Both the position numbers and the translations under genes were made by a program. Shown piece by piece: positions 1,156-7,356 of a stretch of 42,300 bases of DNA. The notes under the pieces are model-generated. The model searched no databases and was not told where the DNA came from. It saw only the letters and a list, made by a program, of their open reading frames with translations. Location of the stretch: NCBI GenBank assembly GCA_947581815.1, contig CANPVX010000004.1, positions 1 to 42,300 of the forward strand, in the 5' to 3' direction. Origin of the DNA: Candidatus Indicimonas acetifermentans. Its GTDB lineage: Bacteria; Gemmatimonadota; Gemmatimonadetes; Palauibacterales; KS3-K002. Every line of letters begins with the position of its first letter. The stretch's first letter is position 1.

Positions 1156-2220
1156 TTAAGCGGGTAAGATGGACGGTCGGTCTGGTGATTTCAATGCCCG
1201 GGCCGGGCGCCCGCGCTCATCGGACGCGGCGGCGGCCTCCCGTTCCAGATAGTCGACCAGCGGCTCGAAGGGGTCGAAGCCGATGACGCGGGGCGCGTCG
1301 GCGACGAAGTTCGAAGTGGCATTGATATCGTAGTAGTACAGCTGCCCATCGCGGGCGTCGACGAGGTACTCGACTCCGCCCACCTCGATCTGAGCCGCGG
1401 CCAGAATCCCTTCCACCGCCTCGACGACGTGCTGTGGCGGCGAGTAGCTCGCGGCGGGGAACGCGGGCAGGGCGGGCAGGGCGGGGAGGGCGGGGAGGGC
1501 GCCGCCGGCAGCCGCCCCGCTGCTCTCGCCCGGGCCAGCCTGCTCGGCCGGTGGGCACAGGTCGGCGGGGCACAGGTTGAAGGTTTCGCCATCGGTCTCG
1601 ACGCTGATGGCGTAAAGGTACTTCCCGCCCACGACTTCCACGCGCACGATCTTGTCATCCGCCGCCGGGATGAACTCCTGCACCAGAGCCGTGCGATCGA
1701 TCCCGAGGTCCAGCTCGCGGCCGCGGACGGTCCGGCGCAACGCGTCGCGCGAATCGAAGCGGCGGATCCCGGCGCCGCTGCCACCGACGTTCGGCTTCAC
1801 AACGACTGGGAAGCGTAGCCCCTCGGCGGCGGCCAGCGCCTCGTCGGGATGGCTGATCACCCGGGCCCGGGGGTAGGGCAGTCCCAGCCTGTCGAGGAGC
1901 GACAGCTGGAAAGCCTTCGATGTTTCGGCGACGAATGCGTCATAGCCGTTGACGACCCGAATGCCCAGTTGCTTCAGGTGAGCGAGGTACTGGAGGGCGT
2001 GAAAGATCGCATGGGCGCGCCCGCGTAGATGAGCGGATGGGCTCATGCGGTTGAAAATGAGCGAGTAACCGGGTGCGCCATCGGCGACGTCGTAGATGTG
2101 CTCGTCGGCGTGCACGCGCTCGTAGGGTACGTGGCGCCGGTCGAGCGCCGCGAACAACGGGACGAACCAGTTAGGGTGCTCGTAGTAGATGGCGATCGAG
2201 CGCTTCGAATTCCGGATCAT
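1156..2220 (-). CDS. ATP-grasp ligase, RimK/glutathione synthetase-like, function unknown
   Basis: ATP-grasp motifs FNRMS, VVVKPNVGGSGAGI, LVQEFIP and GVEYL...YYYDINATSNF. ATG at 2220 (MIRNSKR) preferred over TTG at 2253, which lies in the upstream terminator U-tract. Confidence 0.85.
   Translation of the reverse strand: MIRNSKRSIAIYYEHPNWFVPLFAALDRRHVPYERVHADEHIYDVADGAPGYSLIFNRMSPSAHLRGRAHAIFHALQYLAHLKQLGIRVVNGYDAFVAETSKAFQLSLLDRLGLPYPRARVISHPDEALAAAEGLRFPVVVKPNVGGSGAGIRRFDSRDALRRTVRGRELDLGIDRTALVQEFIPAADDKIVRVEVVGGKYLYAISVETDGETFNLCPADLCPPAEQAGPGESSGAAAGGALPALPALPALPAFPAASYSPPQHVVEAVEGILAAAQIEVGGVEYLVDARDGQLYYYDINATSNFVADAPRVIGFDPFEPLVDYLEREAAAASDERGRPARALKSPDRPSILPA
1454..1501. repeat. 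In-frame 9-bp tandem repeat, GCGGG(C/G)A(G/A)(G/C) x5
   Basis: gcggggaac gcgggcagg gcgggcagg gcggggagg gcggggagg; encodes ALPALPALPALPAFPA on the minus strand. Confidence 0.9.
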
Positions 2221-2251
2221 ATGAAATCGGCCTTGGTTCCGTAGTAGATGC

Positions 2252-2286
2252 AAAACGGCCGCGACTTCGTTGAGGGAGTCGCGGCC
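2252..2286 (-). terminator. Attenuator-type intrinsic terminator upstream of the ATP-grasp gene
   Basis: RNA GGCCGCGACU-(10 nt loop)-AGUCGCGGCC-GUUUU, a perfect 10-bp stem ending about 30 nt before the ATG at 2220. Confidence 0.7.
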
Positions 2287-2308
2287 AGTTTGGCGCGCTG
2301 GCGGTCGG

Positions 2309-2413
2309 CTAGGCGCCCGTCCGCGATCCCCCCGACCCCCTCCCGCTCGGGAGGTGGCGACAGGTACAGCAGCGACAGCCGCCGGAAATGGTGCTTTGGT
2401 TGAAGATGGTCAT
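2309..2413 (-). CDS. Putative Cys-rich leader peptide or small peptide (34 aa) MTIFNQSTISGGCRCCTCRHLPSGRGSGGSRTGA
   Basis: ATG at 2413 to TAG at 2309. Four Cys codons among codons 13-18. Codons 28-31 are complementary to the 5' arm of the downstream terminator. Below the ORF-track size cutoff; ribosome-binding site is weak. Confidence 0.6.
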   Translation of the reverse strand: MTIFNQSTISGGCRCCTCRHLPSGRGSGGSRTGA

Positions 2414-2468
2414 CGTCTTATCGATCTCGAGGGTTATTCCTTCCACCTGCTAGAACGACCGGGACACC

Positions 2469-3584
2469 TCATCGAGTTCCCAAGCCCTCGTAGCCGGTCA
2501 GCTCACCGAGCGCGTACCAAGGGTCGTCCGCGGAATCGACCGCCGCGGTGAGGCGCTCGAGCGAAACGGACAGGCTGCCCGATTCTTCGTAGAGCGCCTC
2601 GAAAACGTACAGCCTGTGGTAGTAGAGGTGTCGGGCGATCAGCGAAGCGTTGTTCAGCTCCGTCGGATCGAATCGGGCGAAGCTGGCTGAACTCATCGCA
2701 GGGGCGTACTCGCTTCGGAAGTGGGCGGCAGCTTCCTCCATGAGTGCGCGGCGGCGCTCTAAGAGCTGTTCCTGATCCAACTGTTCTGAATAGAGGTTCT
2801 CCAGGCCGGACCAGAGCTCATCCAGGAACTCGCCGAGCACGCGAGCGTCGTGCCAGTTATCTCGGGCCGACTGGCAGAGGTCTTCATCGCGCACCCGGCC
2901 GCAGAAGAACTCGATCGCGCCGACAGAACCGACGAAGTTGGCGAGGCTCTCGTTGAACTTTACGTGATCGGACACCCAGAGGGTATTGTGTGTCACTTCG
3001 TGTATGACGGTCTCCACGAGGCCCACGCTGTCGCGGTCGAGCGCCGTGGAGAGGATCGGGTCGGGCAGCCATCCCAGCGTGCTGAAGGCGGAGGTTGGCC
3101 GCAGGTAGGTATCGTACCCTTTTTCCTCCAGCCTCAGACGCTCGGCCTCCGCCGCACCTCGATCGAAGAACCCTTTATAGGGAACGTGCCCGACGATAGG
3201 GAACCACCAGGTATAAGCGACCAGGCGGTCCATCGGGCTGGCCGACAGCACCAGGGCAAGCGTATCGCGGTCGATCTGAGAGTAGGATGTGTAGCTCTTG
3301 CCGACGTCGAGCTGCAGATCGCGACGGGCGAAGCTTCGCGCCTGCACGACCAGTTCGAGCTTGGACCGGGTCTCCGGATCCAGCGCTGGATCGTTGAGGA
3401 CGTCCTCGATCGGTTGGCTGCGCCACAGTATGCGCGCCTCTTCCCAGGCGGCGCGGGCCAAGAAGCCGCCGGAGCAGGAGAAGAATCCAGCGACTCCGAG
3501 CAAGGCGAGGAGCAACGCCACGGGCGCTTTCCTTGGCGGGCGACGGCCGCCTGATCTCGCGCTGTCAGCTTCGGGTTCTCTCAT
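2469..3584 (-). CDS. Predicted zinc aminopeptidase (DUF2265-like), membrane-anchored or exported
   Basis: N-terminal hydrophobic segment, WWFPIVGHVPYKGFF, AFSTLGWLPDP, and gluzincin motif HEVTH...FNESLA. Confidence 0.85.
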   Translation of the reverse strand: MREPEADSARSGGRRPPRKAPVALLLALLGVAGFFSCSGGFLARAAWEEARILWRSQPIEDVLNDPALDPETRSKLELVVQARSFARRDLQLDVGKSYTSYSQIDRDTLALVLSASPMDRLVAYTWWFPIVGHVPYKGFFDRGAAEAERLRLEEKGYDTYLRPTSAFSTLGWLPDPILSTALDRDSVGLVETVIHEVTHNTLWVSDHVKFNESLANFVGSVGAIEFFCGRVRDEDLCQSARDNWHDARVLGEFLDELWSGLENLYSEQLDQEQLLERRRALMEEAAAHFRSEYAPAMSSASFARFDPTELNNASLIARHLYYHRLYVFEALYEESGSLSVSLERLTAAVDSADDPWYALGELTGYEGLGTR

Positions 3585-3613
3585 CTTTCCTGCTGCGTAC
3601 GGGCTGTGGGTCT

Positions 3614-4755: not shown

Positions 4756-5832
4756 TCAGGAGACTGTTACGTAATAGAGGTGCTCTGTGACGTGGTCGCA
4801 CTTGTATCGCCGGTTTTCGCTGTCGCGATCGCTTCGGTATCGCTTATAGGGTTTTTCGAGGCGACGGTAGGTACGTGACAAGCCGCGCTCGCGCAACACG
4901 CGTTCGATGCAATCTTCCGCGATGATTCCCTCAGAGTTGTAGCTCATCAGGATGTGGCGGCAGCGAGCGGCGTCGACCAGTTGCTCGAAGATCGTCTCGC
5001 AGTGGCGGCGACGCGACCAGTCGGACCGCTTGTTTCCGTCTTCCGGCAAGCCCGTCTTGCCCCGCAGCGTGGGCGTCTGCAGAAACCAGCCCTCCGCGAT
5101 GATCTCGGGGATGTGGTAATAACCCACGTACTGGCGGGTATTGTAGGGCGGGTCCAGGTACAGGAGATCGAAAGGCTCAAGCCCGCTGACCAGCTCCAGA
5201 GCGTCACAGCGAAAGGCCCGGCAGGCCCGCCCGGTGCCCGTGGCCAAGCGCGGCGGGCGGAGGTGGAGCGGGCGCGTGGCATTGGGCTGCCAGCTCTTGA
5301 CGTAAGCGGCGTAGACGCCGGTGGTGTTGGCGATGCGGTCGGCGGCTTCCAGGAGCGCTGCCAAAAGGATGAAGCGCTCATCGTCGTTGATCCTGCTGGC
5401 CGTCGTCCACTCGTGGATGCGACCGCGCAGCGCGTCGATGCGTGCCGCGTTTTCAGGAGTGAAGTAGCGGCGGTCGTGCTCCGCTCCAGCGGCTCCATCC
5501 GGGCTAAAGTGCTCGTAAATGAAGCCGGGCTCTCCCTCTCGGCTGTTGAGATGGTCGAGCACAGCGGCCAGCGGATCGCCATCGATCTCGACTACGCTCG
5601 CCAGACCTGCGAAGCGAGGCGGCTGGTCCACGACGACGTAGGCCCACTGGAGTGCGTGGCTGAATGCCATGATGTCGCCGGACGTGACGCTGAATCCGTG
5701 CGTCTTCAGGAACCGAGCGACGGATGCCGTGCCCGCAAAGGGGTCGCAGGCGGTGCTTCCCTTGATTCGGAGTTCCGCGAGGGCGTCGCGGATGAATGGG
5801 ATCAGCTTCTGTTTGTTTCCTATGTATCTCAC
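4756..5832 (-). CDS. DNA N6-adenine methyltransferase (D12 class, M.NlaIII/M.HpyI-like), orphan
   Basis: GTG start at 5832 gives MRYIGNKQKLIPFI; motif I DPFAGTASV, catalytic LYLDPPYN, and family segments RYFTPENAARID, LLEAADRIANTTGVY, GKTGLP, MSYNSEG. Confidence 0.9.
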   Translation of the reverse strand: MRYIGNKQKLIPFIRDALAELRIKGSTACDPFAGTASVARFLKTHGFSVTSGDIMAFSHALQWAYVVVDQPPRFAGLASVVEIDGDPLAAVLDHLNSREGEPGFIYEHFSPDGAAGAEHDRRYFTPENAARIDALRGRIHEWTTASRINDDERFILLAALLEAADRIANTTGVYAAYVKSWQPNATRPLHLRPPRLATGTGRACRAFRCDALELVSGLEPFDLLYLDPPYNTRQYVGYYHIPEIIAEGWFLQTPTLRGKTGLPEDGNKRSDWSRRRHCETIFEQLVDAARCRHILMSYNSEGIIAEDCIERVLRERGLSRTYRRLEKPYKRYRSDRDSENRRYKCDHVTEHLYYVTVS

Positions 5833-6042
5833 GTATCGGCCTGTGTGGGCTGTCTTGCCCGCGGCTATTGCGGCTCGGGGCGGCTGCGAGCCGAGGCAGC
5901 CTACAGCCCCTCCGCCGCCAGGTCCCGCGTCCCGCCGAGTGCAAACTAACATCAGGATCCGCCGTGCGGGGGGCGAGGGCGGGGCGGGGGGGCGGGGGCG
6001 GCCGCCGTTGCCGGCGAGGGTGCGCGCGGTCAAGTTCACAAG

Positions 6043-7356
6043 ATGCCAGTGAGCGAGGCGATCTACGAGCTCGGCATGCGCACCGGGCGAGCGCTGCTCC
6101 CGCGAACGCCGTTCCTCCCCGAGAAGTTGCGGCGGGGGATCGACGGCCGGCGCGGGCTGCTGGGGCGTATCGATGCTTGGGCGCACGGCGAGCGCGGGGA
6201 TGCTCCTCTCGTGTGGTTCCACGCGCCTTCGGTGGGAGAAGGATTGCAGACCGTTCCCGTCATCGAGGCGTTGAGGTCGCTCCGTCCAGACCTCACGGTG
6301 TTTTACACGTTCTTTTCGCCTTCAGCGCAGGGGCTCGCACGACAGCTTCCTGTAGACTACGCCGACTATATGCCTTTCGACGCTGCCGCAGACGTGTCAG
6401 CGGTGATCGACGTCGTGCGTCCCCAAGCGATCGTTTTCGGAAAGACCGACGTATGGCCGAATTGTGCCCGCCTCGCCGCCGAGCGGGGCGTACGACTGGC
6501 GCTAGTGAGCGCGACGCTGTCTCCGAGCTCGAGTCGGCGAGGGTGGTGGGCGCGCTCGTTCCTGTCGGGAGCTTATCGGAGGCTGGACGCGGTGGGGGCG
6601 ATCTCGGAGGACGACGCCGTTCGGCTGAGTGAGCTCGGCGTCCCCGCAAAGCGCATCCAGGTAACCGGCGATGCCCGGTTCGACCAAGTGAAGGCGCGGG
6701 CTGACGGGATCGATCGTTCGGCGCCGCCGCTCGCCGTGCTGGCGGTTCACGACGGTGCGACGCTGGTGGCCGGCTCCACGTGGCCCGAAGGCGAGGGGCA
6801 CCTCGTCCAGGCGCTCGCGCGGTTGGGTCAGGGTCATGCGCGCTTGCGTTCGATCATCGCCCCGCACGAGCCGACGCCTGTACGCTTGGCGGATCTCGAA
6901 GCGCGCTTGGCGGCGGAAGGGCTGAGCTCGGTGCGACTCTCGGAGTTGGAGCCGACCGCCGGGCACCCGGCGGTCGTCGTGATCGTGGATCGGGTCGGAG
7001 TGCTGGCGGAGATCTACGCGCTCGCGGACATCGCGTACGTCGGCGGCGGGTTCGGACCGAGGGGGTCGGGGGGGGGGGGGGGGCTCCATTCGGTCTTAGA
7101 GCCTGCGGCTTTGGGCGTGCCTGTGCTCTATGGGCCGCGGCACGCCAACGCCCGTGAGGCGGCGCAGCTGATCGAAAGAGGCGGGGCCCGGGAAGTGGCG
7201 GGCGCGGGAGATCTCGAACAGGCGTTGAGAGACTGGCTGGCGAATCGCGAAGCGAGGCAGGCGGCGGGAGCGGCGGCGGCGGCCTTCATAGAGGAGAATC
7301 TCGGCGCGGGTCGCCGCAACGCCGAGCTGGTGCTCGGATTGCTGGGAGTAGACTAG
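6043..7356 (+). CDS. waaA: 3-deoxy-D-manno-octulosonic acid (Kdo) transferase
   Basis: VWFHAPSVGEG, TFFSPS, YMPFD, DVWPN, VTGDARFD, VAGSTW, IAYVGGGFG, HSVLEPAALGVPVLYGP. Confidence 0.92.
   Translation: MPVSEAIYELGMRTGRALLPRTPFLPEKLRRGIDGRRGLLGRIDAWAHGERGDAPLVWFHAPSVGEGLQTVPVIEALRSLRPDLTVFYTFFSPSAQGLARQLPVDYADYMPFDAAADVSAVIDVVRPQAIVFGKTDVWPNCARLAAERGVRLALVSATLSPSSSRRGWWARSFLSGAYRRLDAVGAISEDDAVRLSELGVPAKRIQVTGDARFDQVKARADGIDRSAPPLAVLAVHDGATLVAGSTWPEGEGHLVQALARLGQGHARLRSIIAPHEPTPVRLADLEARLAAEGLSSVRLSELEPTAGHPAVVVIVDRVGVLAEIYALADIAYVGGGFGPRGSGGGGGLHSVLEPAALGVPVLYGPRHANAREAAQLIERGGAREVAGAGDLEQALRDWLANREARQAAGAAAAAFIEENLGAGRRNAELVLGLLGVD
7068..7083 (+). repeat. G16 homopolymer inside waaA
   Basis: 16 consecutive G, in frame (S-GGGGG-L). 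Confidence 0.9.

Follow-up and report, generated by a model that had tools for sequence, protein, structure and literature searches.

Among leader-peptide attenuators, those of trp, his, leu, thr, pheA and ilv in Enterobacteria are summarised in the introduction of 10.1101/834739. For leaders rich in cysteine (Cys) codons, the available sections of the respective papers describe the uORFC-8-2 motif before cysS in Rhodobacterales, which is predicted to be a ribosome-mediated Cys-tRNA attenuator (Brewer et al. 2021, PMC8632094), the polycysteine leaderless small open reading frames (sORFs) of mycobacteria, a 'Cys ribulon' that acts translationally (Canestrari et al., 10.1101/834739), and candidate leader peptides with Cys runs upstream of cys/cbs operons in Actinobacteria (Seliverstov et al. 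2005, PMC1262725). A survey from 2010, in its available sections, holds almost no predicted attenuator with an assigned function in Acidobacteria (PMC2965389). Here we analyse a stretch of 42,300 nucleotides (nt) from Candidatus Indicimonas acetifermentans, a member of the Gemmatimonadota (contig CANPVX010000004.1, positions 1 to 42,300; hereafter the window), in which a short upstream open reading frame (uORF) with clustered Cys codons and a terminator hairpin precede the gene of an ATP-grasp ligase on the minus strand. We conclude that this element (the focal leader) is probably a Cys-sensing, ribosome-mediated transcription attenuator, as an earlier reading made from the letters alone (the sequence-only reading) had proposed; that interpretation is now supported by the recurrence of uORF, terminator and tail in orthologues, by a sister leader before cysM in the same genome, and by constrained folds. 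As far as comparison and folding can show, the parts of the element, their geometry, conservation and family-level covariation, and the tie to cysteine and sulfur genes are established.

The focal leader and the gene that it precedes comprise the following features, in positions of the window:

2309 to 2413, minus strand: leader uORF of 34 codons plus TAG (MTIFNQSTISGGCRCCTCRHLPSGRGSGGSRTGA), with ATG at 2413 and TAG at 2311-2309; homologous uORFs occur in orthologues.
2360 to 2377, minus strand: putative regulatory codon cluster Cys13, Cys15, Cys16 and Cys18 (TGT 2377, TGC 2371, TGT 2368, TGT 2362).
2328 to 2364, minus strand: helix just 3' of the Cys codons, formed by codons 18-22 and the G-rich tail in the minimum free energy (MFE) structure of the free leader; a candidate pause or '1:2' hairpin.
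2321 to 2332, minus strand: predicted antiterminator 5' strand GGGGGAUCGCGG, uORF codons 28-31, a near copy of the terminator 3' arm that pairs with 2284-2272.
2256 to 2287, minus strand: terminator hairpin (-20.3 kcal/mol) with 5' arm 2286-2277, loop 2276-2267, 3' arm 2266-2257 and one flanking U-G pair.
2251 to 2256, minus strand: GUUUUG tail with the U-tract at 2255-2252, read from the sequence.
1156 to 2220, minus strand: RimK/LysX-like ATP-grasp ligase of 354 amino acids (aa), an intact full-length frame (PF08443, 9.5e-9).

The Cys-rich 34-codon frame, the hairpin and their spacing were reproduced from the sequence, with four Cys within 6 codons; the listing of open reading frames (ORFs) also holds a longer, 45-aa form of the uORF that starts at GTG 2446. 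The hairpin arms (GGCCGCGACU at 2286-2277 and AGUCGCGGCC at 2266-2257) enclose a 10-nt loop in a GC stem of 10-11 base pairs (bp) that starts 22 nt past the uORF stop and is present in both the MFE and the centroid structure of the spacer fold. Its placement before the ATP-grasp gene is as first described, and the distance from the hairpin end to the ATG at 2220 measures 36 nt instead of the roughly 30 nt given before. The peptide has no Pfam match, and Rfam covariance models gave 0 matches at gathering score in the whole window. A separate Rfam scan of 2100-2600 returned a single match, a long non-coding RNA that we rejected as chance (E = 1.4).

To compare upstream regions, ATP-grasp loci were gathered from related genomes (30), species-representative genomes (80) and metagenome contigs (80), and were re-anchored by tblastn, which left 175 loci with a match, 163 with a usable start codon and 155 with at least 300 nt upstream. 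On the sense strand of these 300 nt, a small frame with at least 3 Cys in 8 residues was found at 72/155 loci and one with at least 4 at 59/155, far above the antisense control on the same stretches (3/155 and 1/155), random 300-nt segments of the same loci (41/1,367 and 4/1,367) and tiles of the focal leader's own genome (289/15,720 and 23/15,720, the tiles also being 300 nt long). The orthologue alignment that the sequence-only reading had proposed as a check thus comes out in its favour. When the complete triad was scored (two or more Cys within 4 residues and, beginning 10-60 nt past the stop, a hairpin with an energy of -14 kcal/mol or lower), it was present at 72/155 loci within 300 nt and at 83/155 within 900 nt, the controls giving 1/155 (antisense) and 3/544 (random segments). 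At the loci gained by the wider search, the leader precedes an extra first gene of the operon.

The peptides themselves are diverse. Examples of Cys-rich leaders are MMIRARMLMCVCPCCPMCCMGERATGGRAERT and MLRHSCCCPCVCCCSRHGRGGQESVL, a leader of the type ...ACACMCSC.HDAWIRVC is carried by a whole genus of 35%-identical orthologues, and MHCSYRMLMCCWTDPRNERS exemplifies leaders with two Cys. Five loci (L095, L100, L069, L098 and L082) have only two adjacent Cys codons, often beside Met or Trp (..MCMCYWHH.., ..LMCCWTD..), and the same terminator; since such leaders exist, the 3-Cys threshold undercounts the family. The loci are related by descent, so that these counts are not independent events: after dereplication the surveyed leaders collapse to 37 clearly different ones, and on a FastTree phylogeny of 149 distinct ATP-grasp proteins the leader feature needs at least 21 changes of state. 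By phylum, leaders were found in 16/43 rows for Gemmatimonadota, 10/25 for Acidobacteriota and 1/1 for Eiseniibacteriota (one metagenome-assembled genome), with 0/2 for Chloroflexota and 0/1 for Pseudomonadota. Lengths and sequences of the uORFs vary widely; frame, start codon and stop-to-hairpin distance are kept. Inspection by eye finds TTGACx-17-TAnnnT boxes upstream of the uORF in many leaders, with 6-13 nt between the end of the box and the ATG, and the uORF would therefore head the transcript in such leaders; ahead of the focal uORF no such box was seen. A blastn-short comparison of the focal leader with the other leaders gave short matches only, the best being 32 nt at 91% (the terminator of an ATP-grasp leader) and 21 nt at 90% (the Cys region of a cysM leader), which is too weak to claim a leader duplication. 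A motif-anchored extraction of leaders of the focal type yielded sequences too heterogeneous for alignment, 2/16 being without the motif.

The terminator recurs with the uORF. Hairpins of the GGCCGCGAC type, related to the focal terminator, are present in orthologue leaders, and a strict stem-plus-T rule is passed by 50/72 of the Cys-rich leaders, while a folding-based rule accepts 68/72, with hairpins of -14 to -39 kcal/mol whose end meets a T-run. The stop-to-hairpin distance is 21-45 nt in 67/68 leaders with a terminator. In two of the four that were missed (L116 and L084) a hairpin is visible and the T-run is poorer. Within a subfamily of 18 acidobacterial leaders, 97.2% of the cells of the terminator helix are paired and both sides have changed at 3/10 pairs, a covariation score that 0/500 shuffles reach; the compensatory changes that one would look for under the sequence-only reading are therefore found, in this subfamily.

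A further signal lies in the codons. Across the 37 dereplicated leader cores, Cys accounts for 61% and Met for 11% of codons (1.2% and 1.0% in the adjacent ATP-grasp genes). Both TGT and TGC are used in the cores, and TGT makes up 62% of their Cys codons; its share is 11% in the ATP-grasp genes next to them and 22% among the focal genome's long ORFs. Such a bias to the rare synonymous codon would fit selection on decoding and not on the peptide product. Together with the interleaved Met codons it could possibly serve to slow decoding and to let the leader sense both sulfur amino acids at once.

For the antiterminator, the sequence between the last Cys codon and the hairpin was folded against the terminator 5' arm in the 68 leaders. 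The mean duplex energy was -17.2 kcal/mol with the leader's own arm, -14.6 kcal/mol with arms swapped in from other leader types and -13.9 kcal/mol for shuffled tails, and the best duplex mostly lay within the final 10-50 nt of the uORF. With double-centred energies of the 37 dereplicated leaders, own pairs were 2.5 kcal/mol better than expected, a value that 0/20,000 permutations reach. Leaders with the 5' arm GCCGCCC have the tail box GGGCGGC, and most of those with the arm GCCGCTC have GAGCGGC; the box effectively duplicates the 3' arm of the terminator. In a MAFFT alignment of the 18 acidobacterial leaders the terminator aligned and the antiterminator boxes split into two registers, for which reason helix 2:3 was assessed by duplex energies and permutation instead of pair counts. 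In the focal leader, pairing of 2332-2321 with CCGCGACUCCC is the MFE structure of the nascent RNA, both with a ribosome on Cys18 and without a ribosome, and a ribosome placed on the stop codon masks the antiterminator strand. The geometry that had been proposed, in which a ribosome stalled at the Cys codons leaves the antiterminator free and one at the stop covers it, holds in these constrained folds of nascent RNA.

These observations can be combined in the following model. The leader RNA would encode a short peptide in which Cys takes four of six successive codons and in this way read the supply of charged tRNA-Cys. The 3' part of the uORF, as a near copy of the terminator 3' arm, is predicted to pair with the 5' arm in the nascent transcript and so to form the antiterminator. 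When Cys-tRNA is plentiful, the ribosome would reach the stop codon, 9-21 nt past the antiterminator strand, and occlude that strand; the GC hairpin with its U-tract could then form, and transcription would stop before the ATP-grasp gene. With Cys-tRNA in short supply, the ribosome would stall at codons 13-18, with a footprint that ends before the antiterminator strand, so that the antiterminator would persist and RNA polymerase would read into the ATP-grasp gene. Translation of the uORF, stalling, a response to cysteine and termination at 2252 are all steps that we infer.

A second Cys leader in the same genome links this kind of element to cysteine synthesis. In a whole-genome scan, a Cys-rich small ORF followed by a clean, correctly placed terminator was found at only two sites, the focal leader and a leader on the minus strand of another contig, C93 (locus L191). 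The uORF on C93 lies at about 6196-6089 and encodes MRDFLSCACICTCRHGGMAVVPRPLGANAELRATI (MRDFLSCACICTCRHGG...); a hairpin of the GGCCGC type and a T-run come next. Upstream of the uORF, a TTGACG-17-TAGTTT box stops 6 nt short of the ATG, and the transcript is therefore probably leaderless. Downstream on C93 lie the following genes:

C93 6030 to 5101, minus strand: cysM-like cysteine synthase (333 bits, under the equivalog cut-off of 394).
C93 5107 to 4622, minus strand: JAMM 'desampylase'-like protein, downstream of the leader.
C93 4605 to 3124, minus strand: CysO-MoeZ fusion with a SAMP/MoaD-like domain, MoeZ/MoeB and rhodanese.

We take the cysM / JAMM / CysO-MoeZ set to be the CysO-CysM route of cysteine synthesis; judged by gene content, the sister leader precedes genes that serve the supply of cysteine, the amino acid that would be sensed. 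In related genomes, the leader occurs at 15/17 loci of cysM orthologues (at least 56% identity, own locus included) and at 0/13 loci of cysM paralogues (35-40% identity).

The ATP-grasp enzyme itself is less easily placed. Its PF08443 score of 35.6 (cut-off 21) identifies the general domain only; it stays below all NCBIfam cut-offs (rimK_fam, 77.1 bits versus 143.4; LysX, 64 versus 275.6), and the solved structures that match it best are chains of the LysX/RimK type (1e-9 to 1e-6). Searches of the atlas, PDB and NCBIfam gave only generic RimK/LysX-like labels, and on these matches the protein is a distant RimK/LysX relative without an assigned substrate. Its start codon is fixed by the N-termini of orthologues. 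Most orthologues are about 320-330 aa long, versus 354 aa in the window, and at 1440-1560 on the minus strand the gene contains a low-complexity insertion (..GAAAGGALPALPALPALPAFPAAS.., local GC 0.77).

The neighbours of the orthologues point to sulfur. An ORF for an SfnG/SsuD-like luciferase-type monooxygenase (PF00296 match; TIGR04021 at 252 bits, under the cut-off of 383) follows the ATP-grasp gene on the same strand at 104/163 loci, and an SsuE/MsuE-like FMN reductase precedes it at 21 loci. We presume SfnG, SsuD and SsuE to be scavenging enzymes of sulfur starvation, an assignment that abstracts bear out in the case of SfnG and MsuD. In the nearest relative (65% identity; locus L002, genome G011), the order is leader, terminator, beta-carbonic anhydrase (PF00484) and ATP-grasp, the beta-class carbonic anhydrase gene lying 540-39 nt upstream of the ATP-grasp start. 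The beta-carbonic anhydrase family includes hydrolases of COS and CS2, which would fit sulfur scavenging.

On its minus strand, the window has the gene order PF10023 gene (3584-2469), a 248-nt spacer, ATP-grasp (ATG 2220 to 1156) and leuS (from 1087). Two further features lie outside the element:

2469 to 3584, minus strand: PF10023 'putative aminopeptidase' (Pfam, 1.6e-82), the upstream neighbour on the same strand.
4756 to 6222, minus strand: long ORF with a ..LYLDPPYN.. motif, which we take to be typical of N6-adenine DNA methyltransferases; it has no relation to the leader.

Adjacency of the PF10023 aminopeptidase to ATP-grasp is not conserved at other loci. Between the ATP-grasp stop and leuS, at about 1149-1125 on the minus strand, TTTTT follows a short GC hairpin that has a single bulge (by eye), and the ATP-grasp gene therefore looks monocistronic in this genome. 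The description of the ligase as an orphan applies to its own genome only; elsewhere it is part of an operon of the sulfur-scavenging type.

Leader RNA is present in RNA libraries. Metatranscriptome contigs (four runs, one sample) cover 2196-2428, 2221-2431, 2239-2426 and parts of the coding sequence, and two of them span the focal terminator, extending 31 nt or more beyond it in both directions; read-through molecules exist. The contigs start 13-18 nt ahead of the uORF AUG, and the focal transcript is therefore not obviously leaderless. None covers 2444-3600 (the upstream gene) or 1268-1435, and these uncovered parts carry no evidence in either direction. The depth of RNA words is higher on the leader than on the coding sequence, a measure unfit for ranking.

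Several points weigh against a Cys-responsive attenuator before the ATP-grasp gene, and our main reservation concerns the window's own copy, with its short U-tract, its lack of clear translation or promoter signals, and an antiterminator that is individually non-significant. The focal U-tract has only 4 U, most relatives having T5-T8. A simple promoter/terminator consensus scan flags neither a promoter nor the focal hairpin, the latter because the loop has 10 nt and the tail only 4 T, and neither consensus scan nor inspection by eye recognises a Shine-Dalgarno sequence or a sigma-70 promoter at the focal uORF. The focal antiterminator duplex has -16.7 kcal/mol versus -15.7 +/- 2.3 kcal/mol for shuffled tails (11/30 shuffles are as good), and the own arm ranks 22nd of 37, because a G-rich tail pairs with any C-rich arm. 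The antiterminator that had been proposed from the letters thus stands as the MFE structure of the nascent RNA and as a family-level pairing, while its energy in the window alone is no better than that of shuffles. Likewise, the stability of the whole-leader fold is unremarkable (z = -1.2; 19/200 shuffles fold equally well). At equilibrium, the terminator has a probability of 0.98 whichever position the ribosome takes; since it wins in every state, the switch must be kinetic (co-transcriptional), as in classical attenuators. The focal antiterminator also forms without any ribosome, which implies that there is no trp-style superattenuation and that an untranslated leader would read through. In the survey, 72/155 orthologue loci are without the triad even within 900 nt. 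The genome, 91.7% complete, gave no SfnG-like or SsuE-like gene by tblastn (E <= 1e-5), and induction of ATP-grasp by Cys shortage is suggested only by neighbours in other genomes. Finally, the RNA evidence consists of assembled contigs from a single sample, and contigs cannot show 5' or 3' ends.

Much of this would also be compatible with a real leader family in which the focal copy has decayed or weakened after loss of the sulfur-scavenging partners, leaving the ATP-grasp gene near-constitutive or transcribed by read-through from upstream. The four-U tract that escapes the simple terminator rule, the lack of a clear Shine-Dalgarno sequence or promoter before the uORF, the antiterminator's lack of individual significance, the missing SfnG-like and SsuE-like genes and the two RNA contigs across the terminator all fit such decay. 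We nevertheless consider it unlikely, as the copy keeps four Cys codons, three of them the leader-typical TGT, a stop-to-hairpin distance at the conserved 21-22 nt, a perfect 10-bp stem, an intact 12-bp antiterminator and an intact, full-length ATP-grasp frame, and read-through contigs are expected of any attenuator that is sometimes open. Quite unlikely, in our view, is a product role for the small ORF, in which it would encode a functional Cys-rich peptide (metal- or redox-active, or a precursor modified by ATP-grasp and monooxygenase) with the hairpin acting as a leaky terminator to balance peptide against enzyme, an arrangement found in many operons for peptide natural products. A short ORF, a hairpin, and ATP-grasp with a flavin-dependent enzyme do resemble a peptide-modification cluster, and there are weak matches to ATP-grasp peptide maturases (TIGR04187, 1.8e-7; an MvdD-like chain, 4e-4). 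However, the peptides share only Cys/Met runs and tails that track the terminator sequence, some have only 2 Cys, the same leader type stands before cysM operons that lack peptide-modifying genes, the partner enzymes are of families that desulfurise sulfonates and sulfones, and a bias to rare TGT makes sense for decoding speed and not for a product.

An element that works without ribosome stalling (a protein- or ligand-binding RNA, Rho-dependent termination or translational control), with the Cys frame a by-product of a UGY-rich motif, seems very unlikely. It could draw on the absence of an obvious translation signal in the window and on the mycobacterial Cys sORFs, which, in the available sections of 10.1101/834739, act translationally and without a terminator. 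Against this, the Cys codons end in T in some places and in C in others; frame, start codon and stop-to-hairpin distance are kept despite the varied length and sequence of the uORF; an intrinsic terminator with a T-run is nearly universal; the ribosome-binding region of ATP-grasp, 36 nt past the hairpin, lies outside it; and no Rfam family matches. Coincidence, finally, would make the hairpin the 3' terminator of the upstream aminopeptidase, whose stop lies 183 nt before it on the same strand with no terminator between, and the Cys-rich ORF one of the many spurious frames that arise in GC-rich DNA. Given that the aminopeptidase is not a conserved neighbour, that the uORF-terminator pair is conserved with ATP-grasp across phyla and that background rates are 0.1-3%, the comparative data already contradict this account, and we assign it almost no weight.

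The above analyses favour attenuation in response to Cys-tRNA, and they allow a wider proposal, to which we give an even chance: a cross-phylum 'sulfur amino-acid ribulon' in Gemmatimonadota and Acidobacteriota, in which Cys/Met leaders with terminators would jointly switch on cysM / JAMM / CysO-MoeZ and the ATP-grasp module, the latter often joined to SfnG-like, SsuE-like or beta-carbonic anhydrase genes, and in which rare UGU codons would tune the sensitivity of stalling. Under this proposal, the ATP-grasp family would be a new enzyme of sulfur acquisition or cysteine economy. More generally, the leader would offer a regulatory clue, cysteine or sulfur starvation, to the role of an ATP-grasp family that is widespread in soil and sediment bacteria, and the combination of a Cys uORF, a hairpin 21-45 nt past its stop and a T-run could serve as a search rule for cysteine regulons in uncultured lineages. 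If true, leader-peptide attenuation would be extended to Gemmatimonadota and Acidobacteriota. Literature searches returned no Cys leader in either phylum and no account of this ATP-grasp, though the supplements of PMC8632094 and 10.1101/834739 may list more motifs. The sequence-only reading knew of no such attenuator on this enzyme family; Cys-codon leaders as such do have precedents (cysS in Rhodobacterales, the mycobacterial sORFs). The element would be a terminator-type Cys sensor, for which the precedents found in the available sections are the cysS prediction (PMC8632094) and, with a translational mechanism, mycobacteria (10.1101/834739).

Compared with the Actinobacteria leaders, the elements described here share short ORFs with Cys-codon runs, which lie near the stop in the Actinobacteria, and a position upstream of cysteine-synthesis genes; the available text of that study reports no terminators and leaves the mode of action open, whereas terminators and antiterminators are present here. 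The mycobacterial 'Cys ribulon', as described in the accessible parts of its account, resembles our set in that Cys-rich sORFs head several cysteine- or sulfur-related operons in one genome, and here, too, a promoter-like -10 box adjoins many leader starts or precedes them by a few nt (by eye). According to the same account, the mycobacterial sORFs lock the Shine-Dalgarno sequence into a highly stable duplex and work without a terminator, whereas here a GC hairpin with a T-run is nearly universal; in the window, the pairing partner of the Cys region is the tail of the same uORF, and the ATP-grasp start lies 36 nt past the terminator. Like uORFC-8-2, as presented in the available sections, the leaders have conserved Cys codons of both kinds (UGC, UGU), a pair of stems and a U-run at the end. 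That motif has two tandem Cys codons at positions 14-15 and occurs before cysS only and in alpha-proteobacteria only, as far as those sections go, unlike the 2-6 Cys in variable peptides, the other genes and the other phyla seen here. No sequence relationship to uORFC-8-2 was detected on the basis of the Rfam non-match, the presence of the motif in Rfam 15 being uncertain.

The closest parallel in design is to the classical attenuators of Enterobacteria. Common to both are a short uORF in which codons of the sensed amino acid are clustered, a terminator before the structural genes, a predicted antiterminator that shares the terminator 5' arm and, as predicted here, termination with the ribosome at the stop and read-through with the ribosome stalled. 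Unlike them, the leaders described here would sense Cys, often with interleaved Met codons, and occur in Gemmatimonadota and Acidobacteriota before ATP-grasp, with or without an SfnG-like monooxygenase, and before cysM operons; the focal antiterminator is predicted to form without translation, and a coding tail of 8-24 codons past the last Cys itself carries the antiterminator strand.

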